Source: Spirochaetia bacterium (GTDB lineage: Bacteria > Spirochaetota > Spirochaetia > JAFGXN01). Taken from it: a stretch of DNA of 64,000 nt. The stretch is from positions 118,963-182,962 of the forward strand of contig JAXEIF010000029.1 in the NCBI GenBank assembly GCA_034120015.1, written 5' to 3'. Each line of letters begins with the position of its first letter. Within the stretch, counting starts at the first letter, position 1. Under the pieces are notes generated by a model. The model was not told the DNA's origin. It did no database searches and was given only the letters and a program-made list of their open reading frames with translations. Shown here piece after piece: positions 2,647-55,496 of the stretch. The position numbers and the translations under genes are program-made.

Positions 2647-2790
2647 GGTTCACCTCTTAGCCCCATTATATCGAAAAACAGAAGGTGTTTCAAGATCACT
2701 GCTGTTGCCGGGAGAAAATGAAAAATAAATTTTTTATTTGTAAAATTGGAAATAATATTGTTTAATATATAGGTAATAGGAGGCAGTTAT

Positions 2791-3684
2791 ATGACGAAAA
2801 GGTTGATGTTATCGTTTTTATGTGTTTTGGCGGTAAGTTGTTCCCGTGGCGGTGATATGCTCTCACCGGGGGAGCTTCGTATAGAAAACCGCTCCGATGC
2901 CCGGATTGAATCGGTGAAAGTGTCCGTGAACGGGGAAGTGAAAGCCGAAGTTTCCGGCGAGGCAACGTCCGGCGTGATTTGGCGTCCCCAATATCCTTTC
3001 CCGGGAAGAGGTTCTCAATACCGTATCGAGATACAGCTTTCCGGCAGTACCAACTATTTTATTGATCGGACATTTGTTTACGATTCTGCCGATGATTTGG
3101 TATTTGTTTTGAACGGGGATTATTCTTTAACAAGTACGATGGATGAGGTCTCCGGTCTGTCTTCCGGAATAAAAATCAGCCTTTCGGCCGATCAGAAACG
3201 GAAACAGGAAGAAATCGAAGCCGGATTTCAAGCCTATAAAAACTGGCTTAACGACCGTACCGAAAGAATGGTAACGGTTCTTTCCTCTATGGCGAAAGAA
3301 AATAAAGTTGTCCTGACAATGGACGGCAACCGGCTGACGGAATTTTCAACAACGCAGGATATTATAGATTTTTTCGGGTTGGAGACGACTGACGGATATC
3401 TGGGGACTGTTTTTACCCAAGTGACAACGGAATTTAGCGGTGATGCCGAAACAGCGGAATTTCAACCCGCATTGGCACAAATTGAAGCGGAAACGGCGTC
3501 TCTTTTGCCGAAAGCCCCGCAGAACCTGCTGCTTCCGGCATTGAGAGAAAGTGCGGTTGAAGATGAACGTTACATCACACCTTCCGGCGGCGCTCCCATA
3601 GATAAGCTTAATGAAGGCTATCGCGAGTCTGTTTACTGGTACAGCGGCATTTTGGAAGCCGCCTCCGGCGTCAAAGGAAATTAA
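2791..3684 (+). CDS. hypothetical lipoprotein
   Basis: Signal peptide plus lipobox (MTKRLMLSFLCVLAVSC). AGGAGG ribosome-binding site upstream. No recognisable domain. Confidence 0.5.
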   Translation: MTKRLMLSFLCVLAVSCSRGGDMLSPGELRIENRSDARIESVKVSVNGEVKAEVSGEATSGVIWRPQYPFPGRGSQYRIEIQLSGSTNYFIDRTFVYDSADDLVFVLNGDYSLTSTMDEVSGLSSGIKISLSADQKRKQEEIEAGFQAYKNWLNDRTERMVTVLSSMAKENKVVLTMDGNRLTEFSTTQDIIDFFGLETTDGYLGTVFTQVTTEFSGDAETAEFQPALAQIEAETASLLPKAPQNLLLPALRESAVEDERYITPSGGAPIDKLNEGYRESVYWYSGILEAASGVKGN

Positions 3685-3694
3685 GGAGGATTTT

Positions 3695-4132
3695 ATGAAA
3701 AAATTACTGCCGCTTATTTTTTTACTGCCGGTGTTGGTAGCCTGTCCGCCTTTGGAAGAGTGGGAGGAGCTGCGGGGAATCGAATTTTATGTGGAAAACC
3801 AGACCGGGGAGCCCGTGTACATCCAATATGACGAACGGGCAAAGACGATTGAACCGACCGAAAGTTTCCATGCCCGTGCCCGGGACAGCCGTTCGGCGTC
3901 CGAACTCTATTTTGGCCGCGAAAACTTAAAAAGGTTTAACGGTTTTTCTATTCCTAACGATTCCTGTTTTTTTACGATCCCGATTCAGAAACTCAGAGAG
4001 AATTGGGAATCCAATAAGGGCCGCTTCAGCGACGAACTGCTGGGGGGATTTTTACGGCCTATCCGGTGCGAATCGATTCGGAGTATGACGAACGGGACGG
4101 ACGTCAGATTTATAAATGGATTTTTGAGGTGA
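3695..4132 (+). CDS. lipoprotein N-terminal module. Probably the frameshifted 5' part of the downstream C11 peptidase gene.
   Basis: MKKLLPLIFLLPVLVAC lipobox with an AAGGAGG ribosome-binding site 7 nt upstream. The ORF ends at 4132 inside the next ORF, which lacks its own signal peptide. Confidence 0.45.
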   Translation: MKKLLPLIFLLPVLVACPPLEEWEELRGIEFYVENQTGEPVYIQYDERAKTIEPTESFHARARDSRSASELYFGRENLKRFNGFSIPNDSCFFTIPIQKLRENWESNKGRFSDELLGGFLRPIRCESIRSMTNGTDVRFINGFLR

Positions 4133-5274
4133 AAGACAGTTGGCTGGCCGCCGGAAAGGCTTCGGAAGACCGGAAATCAATGCCGACTGAAATGTATGGT
4201 AATGTGCTTGTTTATATGGCTGCCGATAACGATTTGTACACGGCCGCGCTCAATGATATCAATGAGATGGAAGCCGGCTGGAATGCATCCGTTCCGCTTT
4301 ATGTCTTTCTTGATCCGCCCCAAAATTCACCGTTTAACCAGCCGCTGATTTTCCGGATTGTCCATGATGAGACGGATGAAATTGTCAGTCCGGTCGTTAA
4401 GGTGTTTTTACAGGAAATTGATTCGGCTTCCAAAAACGGAATGGTGTCGGTTTTATCGGAGGCGGGTTTTTATTTTGACAAACTGATTCTCTGGTCCCAT
4501 TCAACCGGATGGCTGCCGGAAAATATTGATTACAACCGGATTCCGCTGCAGGATACCCCGGCCGGTACGGCAGATACCGGTGCGGACACGGCTTCCCGTA
4601 TTGCTTCCCGCACCTTTGCCGTTGATGATACGGCAGGAAGCCGCATGTCGATCCGGGATTTGGCGTCGGTATTTGAATCGTCTTTTCAGGTCGGGACGCT
4701 GGTTTTTGACTCGTGCCGGATGGGAACGGTGGAAGTTTTTGCCGAATTTTCCGCTGCCCAAATTCGGCGCATCATTGCCCCGGCGACAGATATTGATGTC
4801 GGAGGGCTTTACTACACGACATTGGCAGGAATGTCCCGATGGGAAGAGATTGACCTGAACAAAGCTGTTGCGGAATACAAATCCGCCGGCGGCGGAGAGC
4901 TGATGCTGATTGCCTGCGATCCGAAGGATTTCGGCAGTACCGGTCCTTTTTCGCGGCAGCTGACATTCGATCCCGTTCAGCGGTCGGATATGAAACCGAT
5001 GCAGACTCCCGAAAACGGATACGCGGTTGTCTTTTATGATTTTTTCCATTTTCTTGATCAGGCGGTATCCGCGGAAACCGCCGCAAAGTTAAAAGAAGTC
5101 TTTGAAACGGCTCCGGAAGGGGCGTCTCCCGGATTTTACCTGCCGTATACAGCAGCGGAAAACCCTTCGGTCGTTCTGAAAGAAATCAACGCCGCCTTTC
5201 TGAACACTGTGTGGGGGAAAGCCGTTTCTTTTTCCGATAATATCGCACTTCCGTCCGGAACCGGTCTTGACTGA
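4066..5274 (+). CDS. clostripain-like cysteine peptidase, family C11. Reading frame is open from 4018 and is probably fused to the upstream lipoprotein ORF.
   Basis: Hallmark VLVYMAADNDL motif. His/Cys dyad context WSHSTGW ... FDSCRMG. No ATG start or signal peptide; the track start is a GTG. Confidence 0.6.
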   Translation: MRIDSEYDERDGRQIYKWIFEVKDSWLAAGKASEDRKSMPTEMYGNVLVYMAADNDLYTAALNDINEMEAGWNASVPLYVFLDPPQNSPFNQPLIFRIVHDETDEIVSPVVKVFLQEIDSASKNGMVSVLSEAGFYFDKLILWSHSTGWLPENIDYNRIPLQDTPAGTADTGADTASRIASRTFAVDDTAGSRMSIRDLASVFESSFQVGTLVFDSCRMGTVEVFAEFSAAQIRRIIAPATDIDVGGLYYTTLAGMSRWEEIDLNKAVAEYKSAGGGELMLIACDPKDFGSTGPFSRQLTFDPVQRSDMKPMQTPENGYAVVFYDFFHFLDQAVSAETAAKLKEVFETAPEGASPGFYLPYTAAENPSVVLKEINAAFLNTVWGKAVSFSDNIALPSGTGLD

Positions 5275-5284
5275 AAAGAAAAAA

Positions 5285-5392
5285 GGAGAATCAAATGAGA
5301 AAGGAGAACCAAATGAGAAAGGAGAACCAAATGAGAAAGGAGAATCAAATGAGAAAGGAGAATCAAATGAGAAAGGAGAATCAAATGAGAAG
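5285..5392 (+). repeat. Six tandem 18-bp repeats (GGAGAAYCAAATGAGAAA), each containing a Shine-Dalgarno-like GGAGA and an in-frame ATG
   Basis: Read directly: ATGs at 5295, 5313, 5331, 5349, 5367 and 5385. Copies occur as T/C variants in the order T,C,C,T,T,T. Translates as MRKENQ repeated five times and then MRRIG.... Confidence 0.9.
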
Positions 5393-6481
5393 AATCGGAA
5401 TGATTATACAGGCGGTTTTGATACTTATCCTGTCTTCCTGCTACAGGGGAGAAGGGGGCACTTTTGGCTACGGAAGCGACGGCGAAGGCGGAGTCATCAT
5501 TAAAAATGCGATTGTGACAGGCGACTCGCTGGTGATTCCGTCGGAAATCAACGGTAAACCGGTGACAGGTATCGGGTACGAATGTTTTTCAAAGAGGCCG
5601 GGATAAAAAGTATTGTCATTCCCGGTTCCGTAAAAGTGATCGGGGAGAGGGCTTTTGGGTCGTGTACCTCTGTGGAGTCGCTGACCATTGAGGACGGGGT
5701 AGAAAAAATCGAAAGTTGGGCTTTCCATAGAGTGCCCATTAAAGAATTGGTCATTCCCGGATCCGTTTCCGAAATCGGAAAGTGGGCCTTTGATGAATGT
5801 GAGAATTTGGAAAAAATAACCATATTGCCCGGAAAGTTAAAGGAATTTCCCATGGCTTTCTTGGGATTGACTTTCAAAGAGGTCATTTTTCCCGAAAATA
5901 TTGAAAGCGTCGACCTGGTCTGGTCTTCCGACGCCCGGGTTGTTTATAATCCGGTGAATATAAGAGCTCCGCTCTTCTCGGGGGCCATCCGGTCGGACGG
6001 GCCTGTCGTTGTCGATCCGCGCTACCCATTCGCCTATACCGGAAGGCTGTACTATTCCGACGAGGTTTATTTACAGTGGGAGCATGAGAATCCGTGGGAT
6101 TTGTATGAACGCACTGTTGAAAATGTATTTTTTGAGCCTCGGACCTCGTCGATGCCGGGGGAGAAGGAGTATGAAGGTTTTCTGGAGTACGGAGGCGGAA
6201 ATGCTTTGACGGATATATACCGCGATAACCTGACCTATTCTCAGTATATAAGAGAGCAGCAAGACAGTACGCAGAACAGATTTTATTTACAACTGGCGGA
6301 AACAGGCGCGCCGCTCACTTTTTATGTTCCGAATGAGACTGCCAAAATGGTGATGGATAATAGAAAGAAGGAAATTCTTCAGTTTACTCCGGAGCAGGCT
6401 CGTGCGCTTTGCGGTGATCCTACTCTGGATTTTGCCAAGACTCTTAATCTTCAGGTGGTTGTCAGGAAATACGGTGAGTGA
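5295..6481 (+). pseudogene. BspA-type leucine-rich-repeat surface lipoprotein, frameshifted at a T5 run (5585-5589). Two ORFs: 5295..5606 and 5582..6481.
   Basis: The N-terminus MRRIGMIIQAVLILILSSC is a lipoprotein signal. IPxSVxxIGxxAF(G/E)xC repeats (LRR_5/BspA type) occur on both sides of the frame break. The final repeat ...GIGYECFSK continues as ...EAGIKSIVIPGSVKVIGERAFGSC in the +1 frame. Confidence 0.55.
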
Positions 6482-6508
6482 CGCTGTCTGTCCGCCGGAA
6501 AACAAAAA

Positions 6509-6533
6509 GGTCTCCTTTTCGGAGACCTTTTTT
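6509..6533. terminator. bidirectional rho-independent terminator
   Basis: GGTCTCC-TTTTC-GGAGACC followed by TTTTTT. Preceded by an A-run on the opposite strand. Lies between the LRR gene end and tRNA-Leu. Confidence 0.7.
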
Positions 6534-6616
6534 GCCGGTGAACGGACTTGAACCGTTACAGGCGTGAACCCGGCAGATTTTGAGTCTGCTGTGTCTACCA
6601 ATTTCACCACACCGGC
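6533..6616 (-). tRNA. tRNA-Leu (anticodon CAA), about 84 nt with a long variable arm
   Basis: The reverse complement reads GCCGGTGTGGTGAAATTGGTAGACACAGCAGACTCAAAATCTGC...GGTTCAAGTCCGTTCACCGGCA. Cloverleaf with anticodon loop CTCAAAA and a T-arm of GGTTCAAGTCC. Confidence 0.8.
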
Positions 6617-6652
6617 TTTCTCTGCTGATAGTAGCGGAAAATCGATGAAATG

Positions 6653-7663
6653 TCAAGCTTGCGGATCATTTTTTGCCGCATCGAATGCAAATTCGAACAC
6701 GCTTTTTTCCGGAATAAACGGTTTGCAGCGGTTCAGGTTCAGTCGGCGTGCCGTCAATTCAATCGCACTTTCGCTGTTGCCGGCGGCTGTCGGACAGCCG
6801 TAAAAGGCGGCGGTCTCTTCAAAAGCTTTCAGCGGTATCATGCCGACCGGTTCGCAGCCGTCGACGGACAAACCTTCTTTGGCGCATTCTTCTTTGACGG
6901 CTTCATAAAAACGGCCCATGCCGGTTTGGCGGTAATCGAAGAGGTTGGCGGTCATCTGGCACATGCCGAAGTCGCTGCTGAACCACGGTTTGGCCTGAAC
7001 GGCGGGCAGCCGTCCGGGAGTTTTTCCGTCGCCGGAACTGCGTAACCGTTTGGCTATGGCGTTCAGCCGCGGCAGCAGATCCTCTCCTCCGGGGATGTTG
7101 ACGTTAAACGCCAGCATAAACGCCCGCGCCCCGACCGCGCAGGCTCCGAAGCGGGGATTAAAAACCGCCGGGCCGCTGTCGGGCAAAAAACCGGAAGCAA
7201 TGCGGGCGGCCAATCCTTCGTATTCGCCGCGGCGGAGAAACGGCAGCCGCCGTCTTTCGCTGCAGGCGGCCGATTCGGCGTACAGGTAAACCGGCAGCCG
7301 CAGTTGCGTGCCGATGCGGTCGGCCAGCTGACGGGAAAGGGTAACGGCTTCTGCCATGGAAATTCCCCGAACGGGAATCAGCGGAATCACATCAGCGGCA
7401 CCGATTCGCGCATGGGTGCCGCTGTGGCGGCTCATGTCGATGAGTGAGGCGGCGGTTTCGGTGACACGGAATGCGGCTTCGCAGACGGCCGCCGGTTTGC
7501 CGGCAAAAGTGAGCACCGTGCGGTTGGCGTCGCGGTGACTGTCGCGGTGAAGGACCCGAACGCCGGGAAGGGCAGCGGCGCGGGTGACGGCATCGATAAC
7601 GGAAAAATTCCGGCCTTCGCTGAAGTTGGGAACGCATTCCAAAATTTCGGGAAAATAATTCAT
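6653..7663 (-). CDS. ftcD: glutamate formimidoyltransferase (stand-alone FtcD N-domain type)
   Basis: Starts MNYFPEILECVPNFSEGR..., the typical formiminotransferase N-terminus. The ATG at 7663 has upstream AT-rich non-coding sequence. The longer track ORF (to 7906) adds an implausible hydrophobic leader. Confidence 0.65.
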   Translation of the reverse strand: MNYFPEILECVPNFSEGRNFSVIDAVTRAAALPGVRVLHRDSHRDANRTVLTFAGKPAAVCEAAFRVTETAASLIDMSRHSGTHARIGAADVIPLIPVRGISMAEAVTLSRQLADRIGTQLRLPVYLYAESAACSERRRLPFLRRGEYEGLAARIASGFLPDSGPAVFNPRFGACAVGARAFMLAFNVNIPGGEDLLPRLNAIAKRLRSSGDGKTPGRLPAVQAKPWFSSDFGMCQMTANLFDYRQTGMGRFYEAVKEECAKEGLSVDGCEPVGMIPLKAFEETAAFYGCPTAAGNSESAIELTARRLNLNRCKPFIPEKSVFEFAFDAAKNDPQA

Positions 7664-7769
7664 ATCCGATTGTAACATTAATCCCGAAAATGGAAAAGAA
7701 CTCTTGATTTTATTCTTCGGATTGTGTATACTGCCTAAGATAAATTTTAATATATTAAGGAGATCGGAT

Positions 7770-7940
7770 ATGGCGCAGGCTTCGAAAAACTCTCGTGTCG
7801 GTTCCAATACCCATAAATTTGCCTGTCCTTGCGGCGGCGAAGTCAAAATGAGAACATTGTTCAGAAACGGGAAAGCCCAAAACGTGGCTGTTTGTGAAAA
7901 GTGCAACCGTCAGGAACGGCGGCCGAAAGATTTCAAATAA
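7770..7940 (+). CDS. small zinc-ribbon protein (CPCGG...CEKC), 56 aa
   Basis: Ribosome-binding site AAGGAGA, 7 nt before ATG 7770. Putative promoter TTGATT-17-TATACT at about 7699-7727. Sits immediately upstream of rpsT. Confidence 0.45.
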   Translation: MAQASKNSRVGSNTHKFACPCGGEVKMRTLFRNGKAQNVAVCEKCNRQERRPKDFK

Positions 7941-7963
7941 AATTTTAAGCGGAGGACAGATCT

Positions 7964-8227
7964 TTGGCTAACAATAAATCTTCAAAAAAAAGAATCAGAC
8001 AAATCGAACGGAGAACGCTTCGGAACCGTATGACAAAAAGTGCCGTTCGTACTGCAATGAAAAAAGTGACGGCTGCGATTGCCGCACGTGATAAAGACGG
8101 CGCTTTGGCTCAGTTCAAGGTTTTTGAAAAAATGATTGATACTGCCGAAGGAAAAGGGGTTTTCCACTCCAATATGGCAGCCCGAAAGAAATCGCGCCTG
8201 TTGGGTCAGATTTCCAAGATTCAGTAA
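7964..8227 (+). CDS. rpsT: 30S ribosomal protein S20
   Basis: MANNKSSKKRIRQIERRTLRNR... is a classic S20 N-terminus. TTG start with a GGAGGA ribosome-binding site. Confidence 0.85.
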   Translation: MANNKSSKKRIRQIERRTLRNRMTKSAVRTAMKKVTAAIAARDKDGALAQFKVFEKMIDTAEGKGVFHSNMAARKKSRLLGQISKIQ

Positions 8228-8232
8228 CGTTC

Positions 8233-8263
8233 AAAAATATCCGATTCGTCGGATATTTTTTTT
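8233..8263 (+). terminator. rho-independent terminator after rpsT
   Basis: AAAATATCCGA-TTCG-TCGGATATTTT followed by a T-run. Confidence 0.7.
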
Positions 8264-8277
8264 CATAGGGGGCCGTT

Positions 8278-8601
8278 TTGGGCGATCAGGAAAAAAAATC
8301 TGTTGAGAAAGTGACCAAAGCGGATCTTGTCGATCGTATTTGGAACAGCGGGACATTTCCCGGAAAAAAGTCGGAACTTTTGCGCGTTGTCGATTCGTTC
8401 TTAAACGAGCTGAAAGAAGCCGTTGCCGCCGGTTCGGTGATTGAGTTACGCGGATTGGGGACTTTTGAGGTCAAGTGCCGCAAAGGCCGCGATCGGGCGC
8501 GAAATCCGAAAACCGGAGAAACGGTCAGTGTCGAAAATCACGGTGTGGCTGTTTTTCGTCCGGGAAAAGAGCTGAAAGCCCGTGTCTGGGATATAAAATA
8601 A
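8278..8601 (+). CDS. HU/IHF-family DNA-binding protein
   Basis: ...TKADLVDRIWNSG...LRGLGTFEVKCRKGRDRARNPKTGETVSVENHGVAVFRPGKELKARV matches the HU/IHF arm and beta-ribbon consensus. The start may instead be the GTG at 8311 (MTKADLV...). Confidence 0.7.
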   Translation: MGDQEKKSVEKVTKADLVDRIWNSGTFPGKKSELLRVVDSFLNELKEAVAAGSVIELRGLGTFEVKCRKGRDRARNPKTGETVSVENHGVAVFRPGKELKARVWDIK

Positions 8602-10293
8602 ATGAATGCGGTCCGGCAGGGGCGGAATGCGGCGGCGGCAGCGGTATCGCCGCTGTTGCTTTTTTTGGCGTTTCCCAATCCGCTGTTCGAACGCGGACTG
8701 CCGTTTTTTACCGTTTTCGGTCTTTTCCCGCTTTTTTATCTTTTACTGAATGCGGGCAAATCCCGCTATTTCTGGGTGCCTGTTGCGGGCGTTTTTACCT
8801 ATCTTTTTGTTCATTTCTGGCTTTATACTTTTAATCCTCTGGCAATGATTTTTGTCTGTACCGTTATGGGGATTGCTTATCTGCTGTTTGCGGTCTACGT
8901 ATCGGTTGTCCGCCGCTGTTTCGGTGAAAACGCCTATCTTCCCGCCGCTGCCGGGTTTACGGTATTTGAATATTTGAAAACCGTCGGTTTTCTGGCATTT
9001 CCCTACGGGATTTCGGGTTATTCCCAGTATTCGGTACCGGGGATGCGGGATATTGCTTCCGTTTTCGGGGTTTTCGGAGTTTCGTTTTGTCTGATTTTTC
9101 CGGCGGCATTTTTTGCGGCGGTGGCAGGAATGCCGGGGCGGGCAGAAGCGGCGGCCTTTATTTACCGTCAACGGCGACGGCTGACTGCGTTCGTGCTGTT
9201 GTTTTCTTTTATGATAATAGCAGGAACCGTTCATACGTCGACGATCAAGCCTCTTTCCGGGAAAATGCCGTCGGAGGATTGTCCGGCATCTGTCCGGATT
9301 TTGGCTGTGCAGCATTCGGGAGATACATGGACCGGCGGTTTGCCTGCTTACCGGCGCAATTACGAAATTCTGAAACATCTGACAGACCGGGCTCTGGCGG
9401 AAAACGAAACGGCCGGTCGGGCACCGTATGATATGGTGATCTGGCCGGAAACGGCTTTCGTTCCCGGTATCGAATGGCACAGCCGTTACAACACGTCTTA
9501 CGAGTCAAAGGAGCTCACGGAACAGTTTTTGGCGTGGGCCGAAACGGTTCCCGGAATTCTGATTACCGGTAACAGCGAGAGTTGTCTGGCCGATCCGCAG
9601 AAACCGCCGGTTGTCTACGATGCCGACGGAAACGGCTTCCTGAACCGTTATTCGTATAATGCGGCAGTCGTGCTTGAGCGCGGGCACATCAAAGGAACTT
9701 ACAGAAAGCGGCATCTGGTTCCGGTTGTCGAAGATTTTCCGTGGAAGGAGACTTTTCCGGGAATTGTCCGGTTTTTGGAAGCGCATGGTTGCCAGTTATG
9801 GACACCGGGTGAGGAAGCGGTTCTATTTAAAAGTATTTCGGGAGTTCCTTTTTCGGTAAATATCTGCTATGAGGATGTTTTTTCGGAAATCGCAAGGCAG
9901 GATGTTCGCAACGGACCGCGTCTGATGATTAATCTGACCAACGATTCGTGGTCGGGAACCAATGCCGCCCAAATGCAGCATCTGGCGATTGCCGTTTTTC
10001 GTTCGCTGGAAACGGGAATTCCGACGGTTCGGGCGACCAATTCCGGAATAACGGCTGTCATACTGCCGAACGGAACGGTTGCGGCGGAAGCTGATCCGTT
10101 TGTTAAAACAGTATTGAGTGCCGATGTCCCGCTTTACGCACCGGCGCCTGCGGCGAATGCCTTTGTTCTGCGCGATACTTTTCCGATTTTGCTGGCTGTA
10201 TTGTCGGCTGCGGCATTGGTGTTTCAAATTTTAAGAATAAGGAAATTTTCCGCGGAGAGCAGGCGGAACGGAAAACTTGTCAAAAAAAGATAA
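8602..10293 (+). CDS. lnt: apolipoprotein N-acyltransferase
   Basis: Polytopic N-terminal membrane region, then a carbon-nitrogen hydrolase domain (ILAVQH...VIWPETAF...ICYEDVF). Confidence 0.7.
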   Translation: MNAVRQGRNAAAAAVSPLLLFLAFPNPLFERGLPFFTVFGLFPLFYLLLNAGKSRYFWVPVAGVFTYLFVHFWLYTFNPLAMIFVCTVMGIAYLLFAVYVSVVRRCFGENAYLPAAAGFTVFEYLKTVGFLAFPYGISGYSQYSVPGMRDIASVFGVFGVSFCLIFPAAFFAAVAGMPGRAEAAAFIYRQRRRLTAFVLLFSFMIIAGTVHTSTIKPLSGKMPSEDCPASVRILAVQHSGDTWTGGLPAYRRNYEILKHLTDRALAENETAGRAPYDMVIWPETAFVPGIEWHSRYNTSYESKELTEQFLAWAETVPGILITGNSESCLADPQKPPVVYDADGNGFLNRYSYNAAVVLERGHIKGTYRKRHLVPVVEDFPWKETFPGIVRFLEAHGCQLWTPGEEAVLFKSISGVPFSVNICYEDVFSEIARQDVRNGPRLMINLTNDSWSGTNAAQMQHLAIAVFRSLETGIPTVRATNSGITAVILPNGTVAAEADPFVKTVLSADVPLYAPAPAANAFVLRDTFPILLAVLSAAALVFQILRIRKFSAESRRNGKLVKKR

Positions 10294-10321
10294 GTGTGAT
10301 AAATTGGAAAGAGAGGTAATT

Positions 10322-10726
10322 ATGTCCGCATCGATTCGTAATACAAAAATCGTAACAACATTGGCGGAGGGAACATTCTTTGACGGTGATTTTCGATTTT
10401 CTTCCGCAATGAAAATCAAAGGCAAAGTCAGAGGTTCGATTTCCTGCGACGGATTTTTATATATTGACGAGGGAGCCGAAGTGACAGCCGATATTTCCGC
10501 AAAGTCGATGGTTGTTGCCGGTAAGGTAAACGGTAATATTAATGTTTCCGATTCTCTGGACTTAATGCCGACGGCGCGAATTAAAGGTGATATCAGAACA
10601 TCGAGATTGAGAATCGATGACGGCGTCGAATTAATCGGGAATTGCGAGATGCTGAAGCCGAGCGCCGTCGATATCGATATTTTTTCGGCTCCCGCCGATA
10701 AAATTAAAGCGGCACTCAGATCGTAA
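10322..10726 (+). CDS. bactofilin-family cytoskeletal protein
   Basis: Repetitive beta-helical pattern (KGKVRGSISCDGFLYIDEGAEVTADISAKSMVVAGKVNGNINV...), as in DUF583/CcmA. ATG 10322 with ribosome-binding site GAGAGG. The track start 10277 is a TTG inside lnt. Confidence 0.6.
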   Translation: MSASIRNTKIVTTLAEGTFFDGDFRFSSAMKIKGKVRGSISCDGFLYIDEGAEVTADISAKSMVVAGKVNGNINVSDSLDLMPTARIKGDIRTSRLRIDDGVELIGNCEMLKPSAVDIDIFSAPADKIKAALRS

Positions 10727-11223
10727 TGTTTTCTTTTAATATACCGGAAGAAATTATGAATGAGGCCCAAACGGTACTGGGGCTTTTTCGTGAGAGAGGT
10801 ATAACGGCCGCTTTGGCCGAATCGTGTACCGGCGGATTGTGTGCAGCTGCCCTTACCGAGATTCCGGGGGCGTCTTCGGTTCTCCTGTGCGGGTACACGG
10901 TTTATTCAAACGAAGCCAAGCAGCGGGATTTGGATGTTTCTGCGGAAACGCTGATGCGCTGCGGTGCCGTTTCTGAGGAAACCGTTGCGGAAATGCTGCA
11001 GGGTTTATTGAACAAAACGGGGTGTGCTGTTGCCGGCGCCGTTTCCGGCATTGCGGGACCGGACGGCGGGACACCCGAAAAGCCGGTCGGGACGGTTTAT
11101 ATCGGTACGGCATCGGCGGGCGGATGTTGTATCGAAAGATACTGTTTTGAGGGAGACCGAAGTGCGGTTCGGCGGCTGTCTGCGAAAGCGCTCTTTCGTA
11201 TGCTGGTCAAACAGATCTATTGA
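10726..11223 (+). CDS. CinA C-terminal domain / nicotinamide-nucleotide amidohydrolase PncC-like
   Basis: LAESCTGGLCAAALTEIPGASSVLLCGYTVYSNEAK...GAVSEETVAEM is the CinA_C signature. TAATG overlap with the bactofilin stop. Confidence 0.65.
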   Translation: MFSFNIPEEIMNEAQTVLGLFRERGITAALAESCTGGLCAAALTEIPGASSVLLCGYTVYSNEAKQRDLDVSAETLMRCGAVSEETVAEMLQGLLNKTGCAVAGAVSGIAGPDGGTPEKPVGTVYIGTASAGGCCIERYCFEGDRSAVRRLSAKALFRMLVKQIY

Positions 11224-11338
11224 CAGAGTTGCGGGTTTCACTTATAATAAAACCGTCAGTCGATTCATTCATTAAAATAAAATAATTTTCAGATTACCGT
11301 TCATACAGAATTCAACAGAATACGAGGAATTTTTTATT

Positions 11339-12970
11339 ATGGAAGAAAACCGGTCCGAATCGGAACAGGGAAATTTGTTTTCGGAACAGGAGTCTCAACC
11401 CGAAGTCAAAAAGAAAGTCACAGTAAAAACGCGACCTGTTAAGGTCAAGACCGCGGAAACCGTTGCGGAAAGCCCGTCCGTAGCGTCGGCCGCCGCCGAA
11501 TCGGAAGTGCAGCCGGGTGAAGCAGCCGACAAGCCGCGACATTCGATTGCCGTTAAGAAAAAAAAGCCGGTCAAATTTACCGTTTCGACCGAAACCGCAC
11601 CTGTCAAAGAAAAACGGGAAATCAAAGAGCCGGTAGAAACAGCGGATTTGCGCGAACAGGAAGATGCCGAATTTTCACCCGAAGATATGGCCGATCGGCC
11701 TTCCATCATTATCAACGAGCTGACGACAAAAGATTATTCCGAATTGAGAGAGATGGCCGAGTCGATGGGGGTTTCCCGTGAATCGCTGGCAAATATGAAA
11801 ATTCAGGAAGTGATTTCCGAAATCCTGAAACAGCATACGCTGAAAGGCGGTGTCATTCACGGCTACGGTTCACTGGAAATTCTTCCCGATAATTTCGGAT
11901 TTTTGCGTCTGCCGCAAAACAGCTATCTGCCGGGGCCGGATGATATCTATGTTTCTCCCCATCAGATTCGTAAAATGAATCTGAGAACCGGGGATGTTGT
12001 CGGCGGTCTGGTCCGTTCACCGCGGCCGGGTGAAAAATATTTTGCTCTGCTTCAGGTAGAACATGTCAATTTCGGAAGTCCGGCGGCTGCCAAAACACGA
12101 ATTCCGTTCGATAATCTGGTTCCGCTTTATCCGAATGAACGGATTAATCTGGAGACGAAAAACGGCGATATATCGATGCGTGTTATTAATCTCTTTGCAC
12201 CGATCGGAAAGGGACAGCGCAGTCTGATTGTGGCCCCGCCGAGAACGGGAAAAACCGTTCTTCTTCAGAAGATTGCAAATGCGATTACGGAAAATCATCC
12301 GGAAATCGATCTGATTGTCCTGCTGATTGACGAGCGACCGGAAGAGGTAACCGATATGCGTCAGAATGTAAAGGGAGAAGTCATTGCTTCGACTTTTGAC
12401 GAACAGGCGACGCGTCATTGTCAGGTTGCCGAAATGGTCATTGAAAAAGCCAAACGGCTTGTCGAGAACAACCGTGATGTGGTGATTCTTCTCGATTCGA
12501 TTACGCGGTTGGCACGCGCCTATAACCAGACAGTGCCGGCTTCCGGTAAGATTCTTTCCGGCGGTGTCGATTCCAATGCGCTGCATAAACCGAAAAAGTT
12601 TTTCGGGGCGGCACGGAATGTTAAAAACGGCGGCAGTTTGACCATTATCGGGTCGGCTTTGATCGAAACGGGCAGCCGTATGGACGAAGTCATCTTTGAA
12701 GAGTTTAAAGGAACCGGTAATTCGGAAATCGTTCTCGACAGACGGATGAGTGAACGGCGGATTTTCCCGGCTATCAGTGTTAAAAAATCGGGAACCCGGA
12801 AAGAAGATTTGCTGCTGACGGAAGAAGAGATGGCCAAAATCTGGCTGCTGCGAAAAGTGCTCAATCCGATGGAAGATCTGGAAATCATGGAACTTCTGAT
12901 CGAAAAAATGTCGAAAACAAAAGATAATGAGGCATTTTTACGCTCGATGAACGATGCGGCAGTTGATTAA
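11339..12970 (+). CDS. rho: transcription termination factor Rho, with an N-terminal disordered extension of about 120 aa
   Basis: Walker A region [20 protein letters not shown]. Rho RNA-binding and ATPase regions are present. A 115-nt leader precedes the gene. Confidence 0.85.
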
Positions 12971-13026
12971 TAATCGAAAAAAAGATATACTTAAAAAGAC
13001 AGAGATTCTATTCGGAGGAAATAAGT

Positions 13027-13236
13027 ATGAAAAAGGGCATTCATCCCACATATAAAACCGCCAAGTTTACATGTGCTTGCGGAAATGTGATTGAAACCAA
13101 ATCAACTTTAGGCGATACTTCCATTGAAATTTGTTCCCAGTGTCACCCCTTTTACACCGGCAAACAGAAGCTGGTTGACACGGCGGGACGGATTGAACGG
13201 TTCAATAAAAAGTACAACGTCAAGACCGATAAATAA
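13027..13236 (+). CDS. rpmE: 50S ribosomal protein L31
   Basis: [29 protein letters not shown]...[13 protein letters not shown] is the L31 C4 zinc form. Confidence 0.85.
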
Positions 13237-13245
13237 TCGGCGAAC

Positions 13246-13275
13246 AGGCTGTCCGGTAAGGACAGCTTTTTTTTG
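13246..13275 (+). terminator. rho-independent terminator after rpmE
   Basis: GCTGTCC-GGTAAG-GACAGC followed by T8. Confidence 0.7.
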
Positions 13276-13285
13276 AGGTACGGGT

Positions 13286-13996
13286 TTGAGAATTTTATTT
13301 ACCAACGATGACGGTTACGGAGCACCCGGGCTGGAGGCTCTCCTGAAAGTATTTTCTTCTTATGAATGCGAAACGGTTGCGCCCGACCGCGAACGCAGCG
13401 GGACATCCCAATCGCTGACGCTGGTCCATCCGGTCCGTGTGGTCAGAAAAGGTGAAAACCGGTACAGCTGTTCCGGTTTTCCGGCCGACTGCGTTATGTA
13501 TTCGCTGCTCGGAGTGTCGGATCGCTGGCCCGACTGGGTAATTTCCGGCATTAACGCGGGCCCGAACCTCGGTACCGATTTGATTTATTCGGGAACGGCG
13601 GCCGCGGCCCGTCAGGCCGCTTTGTGGGGCGTGCCCGCCGTTGCCGTTTCGTTATGCGGTGCTCACAAAGGAACGGTCGCCGATTATGAGGCGGCCGCAC
13701 AATGGCTGCTGGCTCATTTCGACGAAATCCGGACACTTCACCGTCCGGAGACCTTCATCAATATTAACATACCGTGCGGCATTTCCGTCAACGACCCGTT
13801 TGTCAAAGCGGTGCCGGCGCGCCGTTTTTATTCGGATAAAATCGAAAAAATGACGGCTGCCGATAAAAGCGAATATTATTTTCTGATGGGCGGTCCTCCG
13901 AAACCGCCGACCGATCCGCAAAGCGACAGCTACCTTGTCGCGGAAGGAAAAATTGCGCTTTCGGTTGTTAAAATCCACCCCGAAACGGTCGACTGA
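13286..13996 (+). CDS. surE: 5'/3'-nucleotidase SurE
   Basis: MRILFTNDDGYGAPGLEAL... is the canonical SurE N-terminus. TTG start. Confidence 0.8.
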   Translation: MRILFTNDDGYGAPGLEALLKVFSSYECETVAPDRERSGTSQSLTLVHPVRVVRKGENRYSCSGFPADCVMYSLLGVSDRWPDWVISGINAGPNLGTDLIYSGTAAAARQAALWGVPAVAVSLCGAHKGTVADYEAAAQWLLAHFDEIRTLHRPETFININIPCGISVNDPFVKAVPARRFYSDKIEKMTAADKSEYYFLMGGPPKPPTDPQSDSYLVAEGKIALSVVKIHPETVD

Positions 13997-14060
13997 TTTT
14001 TACAATTCTTTTTTCTATCTACTTGTCGTTTCATGCCGATTTTTTTATACTGAAACTGAC

Positions 14061-15233: not shown

Positions 15234-15242
15234 GAGATTGGT

Positions 15243-41067: not shown

Positions 41068-43602
41068 TTACTTTTCGATGATGTCCGTTACCGTATAGCC
41101 TGCGCCGGTGACGGCCTTTTTCAAAACGTCGACCGCGGTATTGTTTTCGATGCGGCAGGTGGCCTTGGCTGTTTGCAGGTCGACGGTTGCGGAAACGCCT
41201 TCCACGGCGTTCAGAGCCGATTCGACATGGGTACGGCAGTGGTTGCACATCATACCTTCGATTTTCAGTTCGACCGTTTTCATGGGAAAACCTCCTTGAT
41301 TTTTGTTTTTACCGATTATCGCATCCCGTGAAAAGCGGGATCGGAAGCGTTTTAACCGCAGTGCGTTGCCGACAACGCAAATCGAGCTGAGGCTCATGGC
41401 CGCAGCGGCAAACTCCGGTCGCAGCGGAATACCGAAAAGCGCTTCGAGCAGTCCCGACGCGGCCGGAATCCCGAGACAGTTATAAAACAGTGCCCAAAAC
41501 AAATTTTCTTTAATATTGTGCATAACTTTTCGGCTGAGTCGCAACGCCGTCACAGCATCGGAAAGACGGTTGTTCATCAGAACAATTTCGGCTGTTTCAA
41601 TCGCAATGTCGGACCCGCCGGCGGGGGCGATACCGATATCGGCGCGGGCAAGTGCCGGCGAGTCGTTGATGCCGTCTCCGGTCATACCGACGCTGTGACC
41701 TTCGTTTTGAAGGCGGCGGATTTCTGCCTCTTTGTCCTGCGGTAAAAGACCTGCCCGGACTGTTTCGATTCCAACCAGGGCGCCGACGGCCGCTGCCGTT
41801 TCCGCGCGGTCTCCCGTCAGCATGACGGGAGTGATGCCCATTTCTTTTAAACCGGCAACGGCCTCTGCCGAATCGGGTTTCGGGCGGTCGATGACGGACA
41901 GTGTGCCGAGAAAACGTCCGTTTTCGGCAAAAAAGAGCGGCGTTTCGCCGCCTGAGACGGCGTCGCCCGCCCCGGCGGGCACGGTAATGCCGTTTTCCGT
42001 CAGAAAAGAGGCATTGCCGGCGTAAACGGTGTTGCCCGAAACGGTGCCGCAGATGCCTCTGCCGGGAACTGTCTGCAGATTGTCGGCCGGCGGGTAATTT
42101 ATATTGAGAGCGGCTGCATAGGCGGTGACGGCATCCGCCAGCGGGTGAGAGGAACCCGCTTCGAGGGCGGCTGCGGTCTTTATAAGTTCGTCTTTTGTTA
42201 CTCCGGGTGACGGTCGCACCGCTGTGACGGACGGTCTGCCTTCGGTCAAAGTTCCTGTTTTATCCAGTAACAAAAAGTCGATGCGGCCGGCTTTTTCCAG
42301 CGCTTCGCCGTTTCGGATCAGAATTCCCAGTTCGGCGCCGCGTCCGATTCCGACTGTTACGGCTGTCGGTGTGGCCAGCCCCAAAGCGCACGGACAGGAA
42401 ATGACCAAAACCGCGATTGCCCGCCCGAGCGCCGTTTCGAAACCGAGTCCGAAAAATAAGGCGGCGGCAAACGTTACGAGAGCAATCGTCATCACAACGG
42501 GAACAAAAACGCGGCTGATGCGGTCGGCCAGACGCGCAATCGGGGCTTTGGAGGCGGATGCTTCTTCGACAAGAGAAATAATGCGGGCCAAAGTGTTTTC
42601 TTTACCGACACGGGTGGCCCGTACTTTGAGCAGTCCCCACCGGTTGACGGATCCGGCCAAAACAGAATCGTCCGGATTCTTTTCGACAGGGATGCTTTCG
42701 CCGGTCAACGCCGATTCATCCATTGCCGAACTGCCTTCGATCACCGTTCCGTCGGCCGCGGCTGTTTCTCCGGCTTTAATCAGGAAGATTTCATCTTTAA
42801 GCAGACTGTCGGCGGGAATTGTTTCCTCACGGCCGTTACGTATGACGGTTACCGATCGCGGCGATAAATCGATCAGTTTTTCGATGACCGAAGATGTTCT
42901 GCGTCGGGCACGGCTTTCCAGGTATTTCCCCAGAGAAACGAGCGTCAGAATCATGCCGGCCGATTCGAAATAGAGGTGAGTACCGTATTGTTTTACAAGA
43001 GTCTGATTACCTGTTTCCAGGCCGTATCCGAGCCGGTACAGGGCAAAAAGGCTGTATGCAACGGCTGCACCGGCACCGACGGCAATCAGCGAATCCATAA
43101 TCGGTTTCCCGCGAAACAGCGTTTTGAAACCGCCGGTAAAATAGGAGCGGTTTAAAAACAAAATCGGAATCAGCAGCAGAAATTGCGTTAAAGCGGAAAG
43201 AAGGGTGCCGTGAAATGCGGCAACGGTCGAGCCGGGAGCAAAGCGGTGCGCTGCCATCAACCCCATATCGAGCAGAAACAGCGGTACCAGAAAAACGGCC
43301 GAAAAAATCAGCCGCATACGCGTTTCCCGGTCGGCTGCCGCCGTTTTTCCGGTGGTCAACCCTGAATCCGAACCGCGATCGGCCGCTTCCGACGGCGTTA
43401 TGGGGCGGTAACCCGCCTTTTTGACGGCATCACAAAAATGGTGTTCGTTTGTGCGGGTTTCGTCATAAACGATTTGGGCTTTATTTGTCAGCAGGCTGAC
43501 CCGAACCGAGTCGACGCCTTCTATTTTTTTTACGGCATCTTCGACATGAACGGCGCAGGCCGAACATGTCATGCCCTCGATATTGATTTCACATTTTTTC
43601 AT
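41068..43602 (-). CDS. copA: heavy-metal (Cu+/Ag+-type) translocating P1B-type ATPase with HMA domains at both the N- and C-termini
   Basis: N-terminal GMTCSACAVHVE, CPCALGLATP, DKTGTLT, GDGINDSPAL, C-terminal GMMCNHCRTHVE. 844 aa. Confidence 0.8.
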   Translation of the reverse strand: MKKCEINIEGMTCSACAVHVEDAVKKIEGVDSVRVSLLTNKAQIVYDETRTNEHHFCDAVKKAGYRPITPSEAADRGSDSGLTTGKTAAADRETRMRLIFSAVFLVPLFLLDMGLMAAHRFAPGSTVAAFHGTLLSALTQFLLLIPILFLNRSYFTGGFKTLFRGKPIMDSLIAVGAGAAVAYSLFALYRLGYGLETGNQTLVKQYGTHLYFESAGMILTLVSLGKYLESRARRRTSSVIEKLIDLSPRSVTVIRNGREETIPADSLLKDEIFLIKAGETAAADGTVIEGSSAMDESALTGESIPVEKNPDDSVLAGSVNRWGLLKVRATRVGKENTLARIISLVEEASASKAPIARLADRISRVFVPVVMTIALVTFAAALFFGLGFETALGRAIAVLVISCPCALGLATPTAVTVGIGRGAELGILIRNGEALEKAGRIDFLLLDKTGTLTEGRPSVTAVRPSPGVTKDELIKTAAALEAGSSHPLADAVTAYAAALNINYPPADNLQTVPGRGICGTVSGNTVYAGNASFLTENGITVPAGAGDAVSGGETPLFFAENGRFLGTLSVIDRPKPDSAEAVAGLKEMGITPVMLTGDRAETAAAVGALVGIETVRAGLLPQDKEAEIRRLQNEGHSVGMTGDGINDSPALARADIGIAPAGGSDIAIETAEIVLMNNRLSDAVTALRLSRKVMHNIKENLFWALFYNCLGIPAASGLLEALFGIPLRPEFAAAAMSLSSICVVGNALRLKRFRSRFSRDAIIGKNKNQGGFPMKTVELKIEGMMCNHCRTHVESALNAVEGVSATVDLQTAKATCRIENNTAVDVLKKAVTGAGYTVTDIIEK

Positions 43603-49743: not shown

Positions 49744-49753
49744 GGGAGTTGTT

Positions 49754-52546
49754 ATGAAAAAACGTATAGCTTTGATTTTTTTATCGGTACTGCTGGTTGC
49801 CGGTTGTGCCAATCAGTTGCGGAGCCTGAACGGACAGGTCGTCAAGACAGCCGGAGCCGTGGAAATTTCCGATCCGCAAAACGATTATGTGATTGATGCC
49901 AATATCCCGATTCCGACTTCCGTATCGGCTACACAGGGCAATTTCAGCGATCGGATTCGGATTTCCTGGCAACAGGTTTTTTACGGAGATGCGCAGATTC
50001 AGTATCATGTATACAGAGAAGATGTTAAAAAAGACGGTGAGTCAAAACTGCTTCGTCTGACCGGTTACCGTCCGATTGCCCAACTTCACTACGATGATTT
50101 GGTTTCCGGAACGGTTGTGCCGGGAGCGGTTTACAAATATTATGTACGGGCGATTAATATGAGTTCGCCGAATACGGAAGGAAGTGTTCTCAGTACGCCT
50201 GTTACCGGATATGCGCTTTCCGGTGTTTCATCGATTTCTGCCGATTTCCGTGTTTCGACGGAAAAAGTGACGGTGACATGGAAAGAAGTGGAAGGGGCTT
50301 CTTTTTATTATCTCTACAGAGCTCCCGAACCGTATGAAAACGTTGTTCCCAATGAAGAGTCATTCGAACGGCTGAGTCAGGCTTTTACAACCACATCTTA
50401 TGATGATTACAGTGTTTTGAACGGAGGTTCTCTGGAATCGGGGAAAAGTTACTATTATTATGTCGAAGCGTGTTATGACCGGGAGACGGTGAGTCAGCGA
50501 AGCGGATTCGCACGCGGAGCTCTGCTGTCAGCCGGTGCTCCCGCCGAAGGGTACATCGAATCGGTTTCACAGGGCGAAATTCTGAATGCGATTCGTGTGA
50601 CTTGGAAAGCCGATGACAGTGCAACCGAGTACCGGGTTTACCGGTTGACAAAAGATAATATCGACGGCGGTGACTTTGTCGGTACGGAAATTGTTGTTCC
50701 TATCAATGAAACAAAAAAAGACGGAGATGCCGCTGTCTGGTACGATAAATCGACATCTGTCGGCAGCGGAGAGGAGTTCTATTATCGTGTTGCCGCCGTG
50801 AATGATTACGGCGCCGGATCGTTGTCTTCTCCGACGATTGCCGAAGATGTACTGGAGAGAAGCCGTATAACAGGAAAAGCGATTCCTTCTGCGGAAGGTC
50901 TGACGCCGTATGTTATGCTGACCAGAACGGGTTTTTATGTTTCATGGCCGTCCTGTTTTACGACAATCAACGGCGATGAAGGCTATTACCTGTTTGCGGC
51001 CGACGGCAGTACCGGCAGTGAACCTGCCGACGAAAACGGTTGGACGCTGCTTACGGCGGATCCCGTTAAGGCTTTGGATATGACACTCACCGAATCCGAC
51101 TTAAACGGCGTTTTGAACGGGGTTCCTATTGCCGATGCCAAACTCTATTTCCGCGTTTTACCGGTGAATACAAAAATGGTAACTTATACTTCCGGAAGCG
51201 GTATTGCTGTCGGTTCCGATTATACGAAATACGAAACGGAACTGGGTGAAGAGGCAGCCAAAACCTGTCTGGTCGGACGATCGACTTATACAAGGTCTCT
51301 CTATTTCGAGAAAAAGGCTCCCGTTCTGGTTTCGATTAAGGCAACAGAAGGAACCGAAATCGGAACCGTGAAGGTGACGGCAGAACTCGATTTGAATTCC
51401 GAAATGGGATATCTGTATAATATCAAACTGCAGAGAACCTGTTACTACGGTGACGAGGCGGGAGTTTATCCTTTGAGTTTGCCGCCGGCGAACACTGATG
51501 CCGACAAACATTTTCCGTTAAAAAATCAGCCGAAGAAGGCCAATACATCGACTTACCCGATGCAGGAATACTTTAAATCGGGAGTGATCGAATGGTCGGA
51601 TCCGATGCCGGACTATCTTTCCAACGGGCAGGAGAAAGGGACTGTCGTCTGGGATTATGCGACATGGGACAGAGAAGGCTGGAAGTGTATTCTTCGTCAG
51701 AAAGATGTCGATATGCGGCAGTTCATGAAGATCGAATACAAACTTGTTTCCGTCGCTCTTGATCCTGTTAGCGGTGCGGAAATGGGAGATCCTGTCGTAT
51801 TGAATACGACTCCGGCTGTCGGATGGCCCGATTTGAGTGACAAGGAATTTGCCCACCTGGCCAAATGGATGACCGACTGTGCGCTGAATACGATCTGGCA
51901 GTTGAATATTCCGCGTATGATGTGGGATAAAACGGTCGGCTGGTTGCCGAGTCTCAGTTTCAGCCACAACGGAGAAAAAGGCGGTCGTATGGATTTTAAT
52001 GTCGGAAGCGTAACCAATTTGAGCGGTTCCGGCGGCACAAGCGGAACAGCTTATTCCGACTGGAACGGTTACAGTATCAAACTGTCGATGAGTATGAAGG
52101 TTTCGCTCGAGTCGAACCAGCCGCGTCAGGTGACACTGAACGGGATTCAGGTGACGACACCGCTTTATTCGGGAACCATGGATATGCAGATTACCGTTCG
52201 TGACTTCGGTCCGTTCTGGGGACTCTGGTCCGAGTCAAACGGGACATATCAGAAAGGCGGTTATGTAAAGGTAAAACTGGGAAAGCGTGCAGCTGCCGAA
52301 TTTAATCCTTCGGAAATTATTATGAAAGGAACCGGCGCATCCGATGTTTTCGATTATCAGGTGCACGGCTATGATTGGGAGCGTGATTTGGATCCGAAAG
52401 AAAAAACATCGTATCCGGCCAAAGGGGGCGGTTCATGGCATTTTACGCGGATTAATTGGCCGGCCCGTCCGTATCCCGAAAATAATTCCTATATGATGAA
52501 TAAAGGAAACAAAGCGGCGATTGATTACAAAACAACGGCATGGTAG
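49754..52546 (+). CDS. large surface lipoprotein with multiple FN3-like domains
   Basis: MKKRIALIFLSVLLVAGC at ATG 49754 (the track ORF starts earlier at 49607). Repeats such as IRISWQQV..YHVYRE, VTVTWKEVEGASFYYLYRA, IRVTWKADDSATEYRVYRL. Confidence 0.5.
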   Translation: MKKRIALIFLSVLLVAGCANQLRSLNGQVVKTAGAVEISDPQNDYVIDANIPIPTSVSATQGNFSDRIRISWQQVFYGDAQIQYHVYREDVKKDGESKLLRLTGYRPIAQLHYDDLVSGTVVPGAVYKYYVRAINMSSPNTEGSVLSTPVTGYALSGVSSISADFRVSTEKVTVTWKEVEGASFYYLYRAPEPYENVVPNEESFERLSQAFTTTSYDDYSVLNGGSLESGKSYYYYVEACYDRETVSQRSGFARGALLSAGAPAEGYIESVSQGEILNAIRVTWKADDSATEYRVYRLTKDNIDGGDFVGTEIVVPINETKKDGDAAVWYDKSTSVGSGEEFYYRVAAVNDYGAGSLSSPTIAEDVLERSRITGKAIPSAEGLTPYVMLTRTGFYVSWPSCFTTINGDEGYYLFAADGSTGSEPADENGWTLLTADPVKALDMTLTESDLNGVLNGVPIADAKLYFRVLPVNTKMVTYTSGSGIAVGSDYTKYETELGEEAAKTCLVGRSTYTRSLYFEKKAPVLVSIKATEGTEIGTVKVTAELDLNSEMGYLYNIKLQRTCYYGDEAGVYPLSLPPANTDADKHFPLKNQPKKANTSTYPMQEYFKSGVIEWSDPMPDYLSNGQEKGTVVWDYATWDREGWKCILRQKDVDMRQFMKIEYKLVSVALDPVSGAEMGDPVVLNTTPAVGWPDLSDKEFAHLAKWMTDCALNTIWQLNIPRMMWDKTVGWLPSLSFSHNGEKGGRMDFNVGSVTNLSGSGGTSGTAYSDWNGYSIKLSMSMKVSLESNQPRQVTLNGIQVTTPLYSGTMDMQITVRDFGPFWGLWSESNGTYQKGGYVKVKLGKRAAAEFNPSEIIMKGTGASDVFDYQVHGYDWERDLDPKEKTSYPAKGGGSWHFTRINWPARPYPENNSYMMNKGNKAAIDYKTTAW

Positions 52547-52557
52547 GAGAGGTGAAA

Positions 52558-52992
52558 ATGAAAAGACTGACGGTACTTTTACTGATGATATTCGGACTGA
52601 TTTCCTGTCTGCCGGAAGGGTATTATCCGGCAACAACAGCAGGAATTACCGATTACTGGATTTTGGAGTCCGGCGAAATCACGGAGACGCTGGATTTGTA
52701 TTTCGAAAAGGGACGATACTGTTTTACATGGACGCGGCAGATTCAGGGGGTTGATATTGTCGATCCCGTAAAAGGTCATTATAATGTCCGCCGTGTTAAT
52801 GACTACGGCGAAAAATGGTATGTTCTGACGCTGATGCCGGAAGGTGAGAATCAGCCGATTTACTCTTATAAGATGACATTGTCACAGGATAAACGCGTTC
52901 TGGCTCTGGAAGGAAGCGGTATTTCGTATTATTACCGGGTTGAAAAAGAGAAAAATGCCGGTAAAGACGATGGAGAAAAAAGTAGGAGGTAA
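52558..52992 (+). CDS. small lipoprotein
   Basis: MKRLTVLLLMIFGLISC with ribosome-binding site GGAGAGGTG. Confidence 0.45.
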   Translation: MKRLTVLLLMIFGLISCLPEGYYPATTAGITDYWILESGEITETLDLYFEKGRYCFTWTRQIQGVDIVDPVKGHYNVRRVNDYGEKWYVLTLMPEGENQPIYSYKMTLSQDKRVLALEGSGISYYYRVEKEKNAGKDDGEKSRR

Positions 52993-52995
52993 AGA

Positions 52996-55417: not shown

Positions 55418-55496
55418 ATATTAGAAGGAATGGGTTTACCCCGACGGAACCGACCGGGGCAGGGCCGCAGGGATCGAGAGCCCCCCCGAAAACGAC

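Follow-up and report, generated by a model that had tools for sequence, protein, structure and literature searches.

The window analysed here, a stretch of 64,000 nucleotides from a 235.5-kb contig of an NCBI 'Spirochaetia bacterium' MAG, harbors a three-gene lipoprotein cassette, the middle gene of which encodes a C11 peptidase and is split into two overlapping reading frames (Table 1). The middle gene is separated from its two neighbors by gaps of 10 and 20 bp, and each of the three genes possesses a lipobox-type leader. The upstream open reading frame (ORF), of 145 residues, starts with MKKLLPLIFLLPVLVAC behind a strong SD sequence AAGGAGG, and has the lipobox MKKLLPLIFLLPVLVA followed by the cysteine, which by inspection corresponds to LAAC in the orthologues. 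The downstream frame follows a TAA at 4015-4017, and on direct reading remains open from 4018 up to the stop codon at 5272-5274. Within the overlap of the two frames, at 348 nt into the upstream ORF, sits a run of six guanines (G6), which is separated by the single A4048 from a run of five thymines (T5); the junction DNA reads CTGCTGGGGGGATTTTTACGGC. Adding one base to either run gives a single ORF of 526 residues, whereas removing two G from the G run gives a single ORF of 525 residues, the natural intact state. In the NCBI (PGAP) annotation, the 5' half is a hypothetical protein of 145 residues (MDY3940179.1), and the 3' half is a clostripain-related peptidase of 402 residues starting from GTG 4066 (MDY3940180.1). 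An earlier sequence-only reading of this DNA had placed the TAA, both runs and the two frames at exactly the positions found on re-reading, and the motifs it listed (VLVYMAADNDL, WSHSTGW and FDSCRMG) are all present in the downstream frame.

Table 1. Features of the split C11 gene and of the surrounding cassette (window coordinates)
Feature	Position	Strand	Remark
Three-gene lipoprotein cassette	2657..6529	+	flanked by the LL-DAP aminotransferase gene and tRNA-Leu(CAA)
First gene, 297-aa putative lipoprotein	2791..3684	+	85% identity with P0045 (1136 aa), residues 1-295
5' fragment of the C11 lipoprotein gene, 145 aa	3695..4132	+	signal peptide, lipobox and residues 1-117, then 28 out-of-frame residues
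Signal peptide, lipobox L-V-A-C, Cys17 codon 3743-3745	3695..3745	+	direct read; LAAC in orthologues
3' part of the C11 gene, -1 frame	4018..5274	+	C11 domain in full, preceded by the two final predicted strands of the N-terminal domain
G6 run, the lesion (+2 G)	4042..4047	+	G4 in all other alleles read
T5 run, Ile-Phe codons ATT TTT, not the lesion site	4049..4053	+	conserved in orthologues and paralogue
Predicted catalytic His codon (WSHSTGW)	4498..4500	+	invariant alignment column; aligns to HGTGW of 6mzo
Predicted catalytic Cys codon (FDSCRMG)	4714..4716	+	invariant alignment column; aligns to FDACYM of 6mzo
18-bp tandem repeat, 6.1 copies (TRF)	5282..5391	+	5' end of the third gene; unit = SD + ATG + MRKENQ codons
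Third gene, BspA-type LRR lipoprotein	5295..6481	+	Pfam LRR_5, E = 3e-22; split into 5295..5606 and 5582..6481
T5 run breaking the LRR gene	5585..5589	+	T6 in all relatives; repeated in Logan contig L026
tRNA-Leu(CAA)	6533..6616	-	right-hand border of the cassette

The Rho matches within the organism's own lineage are 79-100% identical, compared to at most ~75% over ~78% of the length outside it. The named matches outside the lineage belong to uncultured Spirochaetia, Spirochaetales or Treponemataceae, or to 'Treponema sp.' MAGs; judged by these matches, the organism does not appear to be a known Treponema. No rRNA gene was found within the window.

The intact protein of ~525 residues is predicted to comprise three parts: a lipobox signal peptide, a lineage-restricted N-terminal domain of ~150 residues, and a C11 cysteine peptidase domain. 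The C11 frames match the Pfam family PF03415 (Peptidase_C11) over residues 173-380 of the joined protein, with an E-value of 3e-17 and a score of 63.6 bits against the cutoff of 25.8. In addition, the C11 chains 6mzo, 6n9j and 3uws of the PDB are matched by sequence, with E-values of 1e-9 to 3e-5. In the AF2 model of the orthologue P0001, which shares 95% identity, the C11 part has a pLDDT of 70-85; structural similarity search with this model using Foldseek returned C11 structures for all of the top 11 matches, with a best E-value of 1e-15. The His and Cys residues of the putative dyad are invariant across the family alignment. Altogether, the profile, the catalytic motifs and the caspase-like α/β fold of the model place the protein in the C11 family, with proteolysis as the predicted activity. 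Our literature search for C11 or clostripain peptidases in Treponema lipoproteins found no paper.

No Pfam family matches the N-terminal domain (window 3746-4045, residues 18-117), the first 80 residues of which form a hypervariable stretch among strains. A HMMER search with the first 100 residues of the domain against 1.84 billion clusters at 50% identity revealed clear relatives in two clusters only, namely those of the orthologue and the paralogue, the alignments of which span most of the query, in addition to two further weak and partial matches in giant proteins. Among 18 alleles, 24 variable sites are located in residues 26-100 and none in residues 101-125, and the segment S112-V125 is almost fully invariant, the paralogue included. 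It is within this conserved part, in the motif RFSDELLGIFTAYPV, that the frame shifts at residue 117/118, and the C11 domain starts ~50 residues further on. In the AF2 model, the N-terminal domain continues past the break with two more strands; confidence is low for this domain (pLDDT 40-66, from a 10-sequence alignment), and its strand boundaries are to be read as weak support. The homopolymer, which had been taken to separate an N-terminal module from the peptidase, thus cuts inside one domain. A related 531-residue protein (P0004), encoded by a 3.5-kb ENA contig, matches the C11 lipoprotein over its first ~280 residues (91% identity) and consists of TPR repeats in the rest; either a rearrangement of the allele or a chimeric assembly may account for it.

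Among 5.8 billion protein clusters searched, homologues were found as single ORFs of 525, 525 and 509 residues (95, 93 and 56% identity, respectively), which cover 98-100% of the joined protein. The full-length homologues of 523-525 residues span both halves at 93-98% identity, and the 509-residue protein at 56% is a paralogue. Because these single-ORF homologues cover both halves, the two frames are read as parts of one gene rather than a chance overlap, which bears out the earlier proposal of a single frameshifted gene for a lipoprotein-anchored C11 peptidase. All 16 other alleles, 14 of them read at the DNA level, are intact ORFs of 523-525 residues with CTGCTGGGGATTTTTACG. The 14 DNA loci, which come from other samples (L001/L025, L002, L003, L008-L016, L022 and L024), share the sequence CTGCTGGGGATTTTTACGGC with a G4/T5 arrangement, and the paralogue has G3/T5, reading ATGGGAATTTTT / ATGGGAATTTTTACC. 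The 90%-identity cluster contains 125 members, and 13 further members that we read, of 523-524 residues, all have ELLGIFTAY with a single Gly and the motif RFSDELLGIFTAYPV. None of the 16 other alleles is a G5 or G7 allele or encodes an 'LLGGIF' protein. Moreover, the 145-residue fragment is a singleton cluster among ~15 billion proteins. Scanning of JGI metagenome contigs for GAACTGCTG N2-10 ATTTTTACGGCCTA, which allows any tract length, gave 0 matches and is thus uninformative.

Since the other loci and the paralogue carry G4 or G3, the ancestral run is G4, and the window contains an expansion by two G (G4 to G6). With each orthologue forming a single gene, the split is derived rather than ancestral. 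Comparison of the orthologues was a check proposed by the sequence-only reading, and a pattern of orthologues likewise made up of two genes, which would have spoken against a frameshift, is absent. That reading had assumed that the intact state would be reached by one additional base (G7 or T6). Such an insertion does fuse the frames, as it claimed, but the natural state is two G shorter, with the T5 run unchanged.

The additional two G might alternatively be an artefact of sequencing or assembly, in which case the true sequence would be G4 and the gene intact. This would agree with an allele that is unique to one sample, with a gene that is otherwise undamaged, with the standing of homopolymers as the classic site of indel errors, and with the annotation of the halves by NCBI as two CDS without comment. 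However, Logan contigs of the run SRR21357785, which were built by a different assembler, match the window at 100% identity over 4,627 and 9,740 bp, as independent assemblies that probably share reads with the MAG and are not independent sequencing. The identical stretches include the G6 run (L007) as well as the T5 run of the LRR gene (L026, same sample), and the Logan contig crosses the G6 site unbranched. Moreover, an error of two bases in a four-base run would be unusual for the consensus of any platform.

The general indel noise of the assembly was assessed against close relatives. Compared to five strains of 99.5% identity, positions 14,339-34,875 show zero indels over 20,537 bp. Against three strains, the indels in positions 37,751-58,180 are intergenic, in-frame or compensated, save one A6/A7 difference that affects just the last codons of a 150-residue ORF; positions 5,318-15,308 differ from L001 by two indels only, both of which are in the LRR gene. 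Over the ~50 kb compared with strains of 98-99.5% identity, the sole other gene-breaking indel is the T6 to T5 change in the LRR gene, despite ~520 homopolymers of at least five bases in the window. The segments at 34.9-37.7 kb and 58.2-64 kb were judged by ORF continuity and Pfam coverage instead of relatives, and by these measures the window contains no other split gene. In addition, the G6 runs in a NifU-like and a DsbD-like gene are the same in all five strains. Because of this noise control over ~50 kb, the stable G6 runs and the lack of other split genes, an error-prone assembly is very unlikely, and a local artefact at the G6 run appears quite unlikely as well.

Several other features of the window were recorded during these comparisons. 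The ORF 52540..52992 (150 residues) has an A6 run at 52976 compared to A7 in the relatives, which changes its last few codons; the run coincides with the SD region of the following gene and belongs to a block of genes for large Ig-like/fn3 surface proteins (48178-55386). A tRNA gene (55534-55607) is preceded, at a distance of ~45 bp, by an intergenic C7 run (55481-55487), which corresponds to TCGCCCCC in two more distant relatives. The heavy-metal P-type ATPase gene (41068..43602, minus strand) contains a short and highly divergent patch at its N-terminus (43335-43380), with a net in-frame length change compared to three strains with 98-99% identity elsewhere. A terminator-like hairpin at 4024-4045 followed by GGATTTTT was treated as a chance occurrence, with 9 such sites in the region compared to 5.9 ± 2.1 in shuffles, and was also discounted because the surrounding ORF is conserved at the level of the protein it encodes.

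Once the run is restored to G4, the window gene encodes a protein of 525 residues that is 97.7% identical to the intact alleles and keeps the dyad. It has two private residues only, A15V in the signal peptide and one at position 492. As the restored protein carries just these two private substitutions and no other defect, the frameshift is, on this comparison, recent and the sole lesion of the C11 gene. Translation would leave the frame at residue 117 and stop 28 codons later. The fragment that encodes the peptidase had been described as devoid of an ATG, though it contains ATG codons at 4180, 4192 and 4216, in addition to GTG at 4066 and 4129. None of these in-frame starts has an SD sequence, whereas the real starts in the cassette all have AGGAGG or AAGGAG. 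With a C11 fragment that lacks a signal peptide, an SD sequence and a credible start, the window allele is most likely null or nearly null.

A point against complete loss of function is that the sequence G_GGG_GGA, in the -1 slippage register, could allow some read-through product. In its strongest form, this would mean that -1 ribosomal frameshifting on the heptamer, or transcriptional slippage, still yields the full-length protease. The heptamer G GGG GGA (4042-4048) fits the pattern X_XXY_YYZ, zero-frame codons begin at 4043 and 4046, and the shift needed is indeed -1. However, the two-frame layout is not conserved, as every orthologue is a plain G4 ORF, and a stimulatory RNA structure downstream of the G6 run is not supported: the 92 nt that follow have a minimum free energy of -17.7 kcal/mol, compared to a shuffle mean of -19.4 kcal/mol (z = +0.61). 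In addition, G-only heptamers are poor shifters, and six G are short for slippage of RNA polymerase. We consider recoding of this kind exceedingly improbable, and at best an incidental leakiness of an allele that is otherwise knocked out.

The cassette as a whole varies among near-identical strains. Strain L023, with 98-99% identity elsewhere, lacks the entire cassette and has 86 bp in its place (L023 4634-4719). Sister strains share 96-98% identity with the window within the cassette compared to 99-99.5% outside, and this drop suggests recombination. The first gene has a long form of 1136 residues elsewhere, with a weak astacin signal. Its 297-residue form terminates in GVKGN and a 307-residue form in GTDRIYKN, compared to SSSTYKN in the long form. 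These tails show that the two short forms are different in-frame internal deletions of ~2.5 kb, each of which keeps the last few codons.

The third gene is damaged in several strains as well. In the window it has lost 1 bp, with T6 changed to T5. L001 (at 7365) and L022 share a change of T6 to T7 at the position that matches window 6128, and L022 has in addition a change of T3 to T2 at window 5766 (the two L022 sites are at 3956 and 4317). L024 and the more distant strains have intact copies, and intact forms are 355-390 residues long. The 18-bp repeat at the 5' end of the gene provides a ladder of in-frame starts ahead of the LRR signal peptide, and strains differ in its copy number; the motif occurs five times in the window and one to five times in the other loci, some of which end inside the repeat, where short-read contigs break. 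Altogether, the deletions and frameshifts fit an accessory cassette that has been repeatedly lost piecemeal in this species, mostly irreversibly. The C11 frameshift would be tolerated because the cassette is, as we infer, under relaxed or negative selection.

A different interpretation of the same variation, put forward by the sequence-only reading, is reversible phase variation, in which the G run, together with the LRR gene's T runs, would act as switches and the window would have been caught in an OFF state. Both frameshifts of the window lie in homopolymers of adjacent genes for predicted surface lipoproteins and nowhere else in ~50 kb. The LRR gene has three independent frameshifts among four strains of 99% identity, of which two affect T6-type runs and the third a T3 run. 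Moreover, the C11 allele carries no secondary damage and is still revertible, and an expanded G6 run should slip more readily than G4. These points are set against an ON allele that is only G4 at the 14 DNA loci and G3 in the paralogue, which means that no hypermutable tract is kept in functional alleles. Instead of multiple tract lengths, the strains show G4 and a single G6, with G5, G7 and 'LLGGIF' missing from the 16 other alleles, and the 145-residue fragment stands alone in its cluster. Reversion would require a loss of two bases or a gain of one in a six-base run. Five strains show no variation in the G6 runs of the NifU-like and DsbD-like genes, and the Logan contig is unbranched at the site. 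A frameshift at a run as short as T3, as found once in the LRR gene, is not predicted by any switch model, and the loss of the whole cassette together with the large deletions points to irreversible decay. The precedent in Treponema is a promoter poly-G that varies over 7-11 G (PMC7864442), different in location and length class from the run described here, which lies inside an ORF; the assignment to the tpr/TP0126 class is thus not upheld. On balance, we regard phase variation at the G6 run as unlikely.

A broader form of switching would make the cassette a contingency island, in which the protease and the LRR lipoprotein are off and occasionally on by slippage at short homopolymers (G4-G7, T5-T7), with the SD+ATG repeat tuning expression. 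If true, this would provide surface heterogeneity under host or phage pressure, but we hold it to be rather improbable.

The explanation that probably accounts best for the observations is a recent strain-specific GG expansion, an ordinary knock-out of a lipoprotein C11 gene in an accessory cassette. The conserved GGGG (codons CTG GGG ATT) would have gained two G, presumably by replication slippage, which would leave the protease domain without a signal peptide, SD sequence or credible start and produce a null allele that is tolerated under relaxed or negative selection on the cassette. A point against this explanation is that changes of two bases are rarer than changes of one for slippage at a four-base run; the sample might also contain a minority G4 or G7 subpopulation.

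For annotation, this means that MDY3940179.1 and MDY3940180.1 represent one frameshifted gene, either a pseudogene or a low-frequency allele. More broadly, a tRNA-adjacent cassette for surface lipoproteins is repeatedly deleted, truncated and frameshifted among near-identical strains of an uncultured gut spirochaete, and this repeated loss suggests that, in some hosts, its products can be dispensed with or carry a cost. The finding flags the cassette as a variable surface locus; it involves no new mechanism, and is an ordinary one that adds a single data point to a modest pattern.

The intact protein resembles the clostripain-family (MEROPS C11) peptidases of gut bacteria, a set that includes the P. 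distasonis C11 zymogen (6MZO), the B. thetaiotaomicron enzymes (6N9J and 6NAG), PmC11 (3UWS/4YEC), the B. fragilis enzyme (5DYN) and clostripain (9CIP). They have in common the PF03415 profile, the xSHGxGW-type His and FDxC Cys motifs, the predicted fold (Foldseek E-values of 1e-15 to 1e-7) and a secreted or lipid-anchored location. Compared to these structures, the spirochaete protein shares only 13-31% identity in structural alignments, has an extra N-terminal domain of ~150 residues, and is frameshifted in the window strain. The junction itself is similar to programmed -1 frameshifting of the dnaX or IS element type in its in-register heptamer and the downstream frame at -1. It differs in that the arrangement is unconserved and has no stimulatory structure, no internal SD sequence was noticed upstream, and the site arose by mutation in one strain.

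In T. pallidum, genes for outer membrane proteins (tprE/G/J, tprF/I, tp0126 and tprL) have a promoter poly-G that varies over 7-11 G within a strain and modulates transcription (PMC7864442). The window locus shares with them a G homopolymer tied to the gene of a predicted surface protein in a spirochaete, but its run is intragenic, every functional allele has G4, and no other length variants are seen. The contingency loci of Neisseria, Campylobacter and Helicobacter have long tracts, typically of at least seven bases, in both ON and OFF states, with many lengths among isolates. As in those loci, a change in the length of an intragenic homopolymer shifts the frame of a surface gene; unlike in them, the ON state here is a four-base run encoding a conserved Gly. 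The closest likeness is to ordinary frameshift pseudogenes or loss-of-function alleles of accessory surface genes, which have a single strain-specific indel in a short homopolymer of a gene that is intact in relatives, with damaged neighbors in a variably present island, and which show no material difference from the C11 gene described here.
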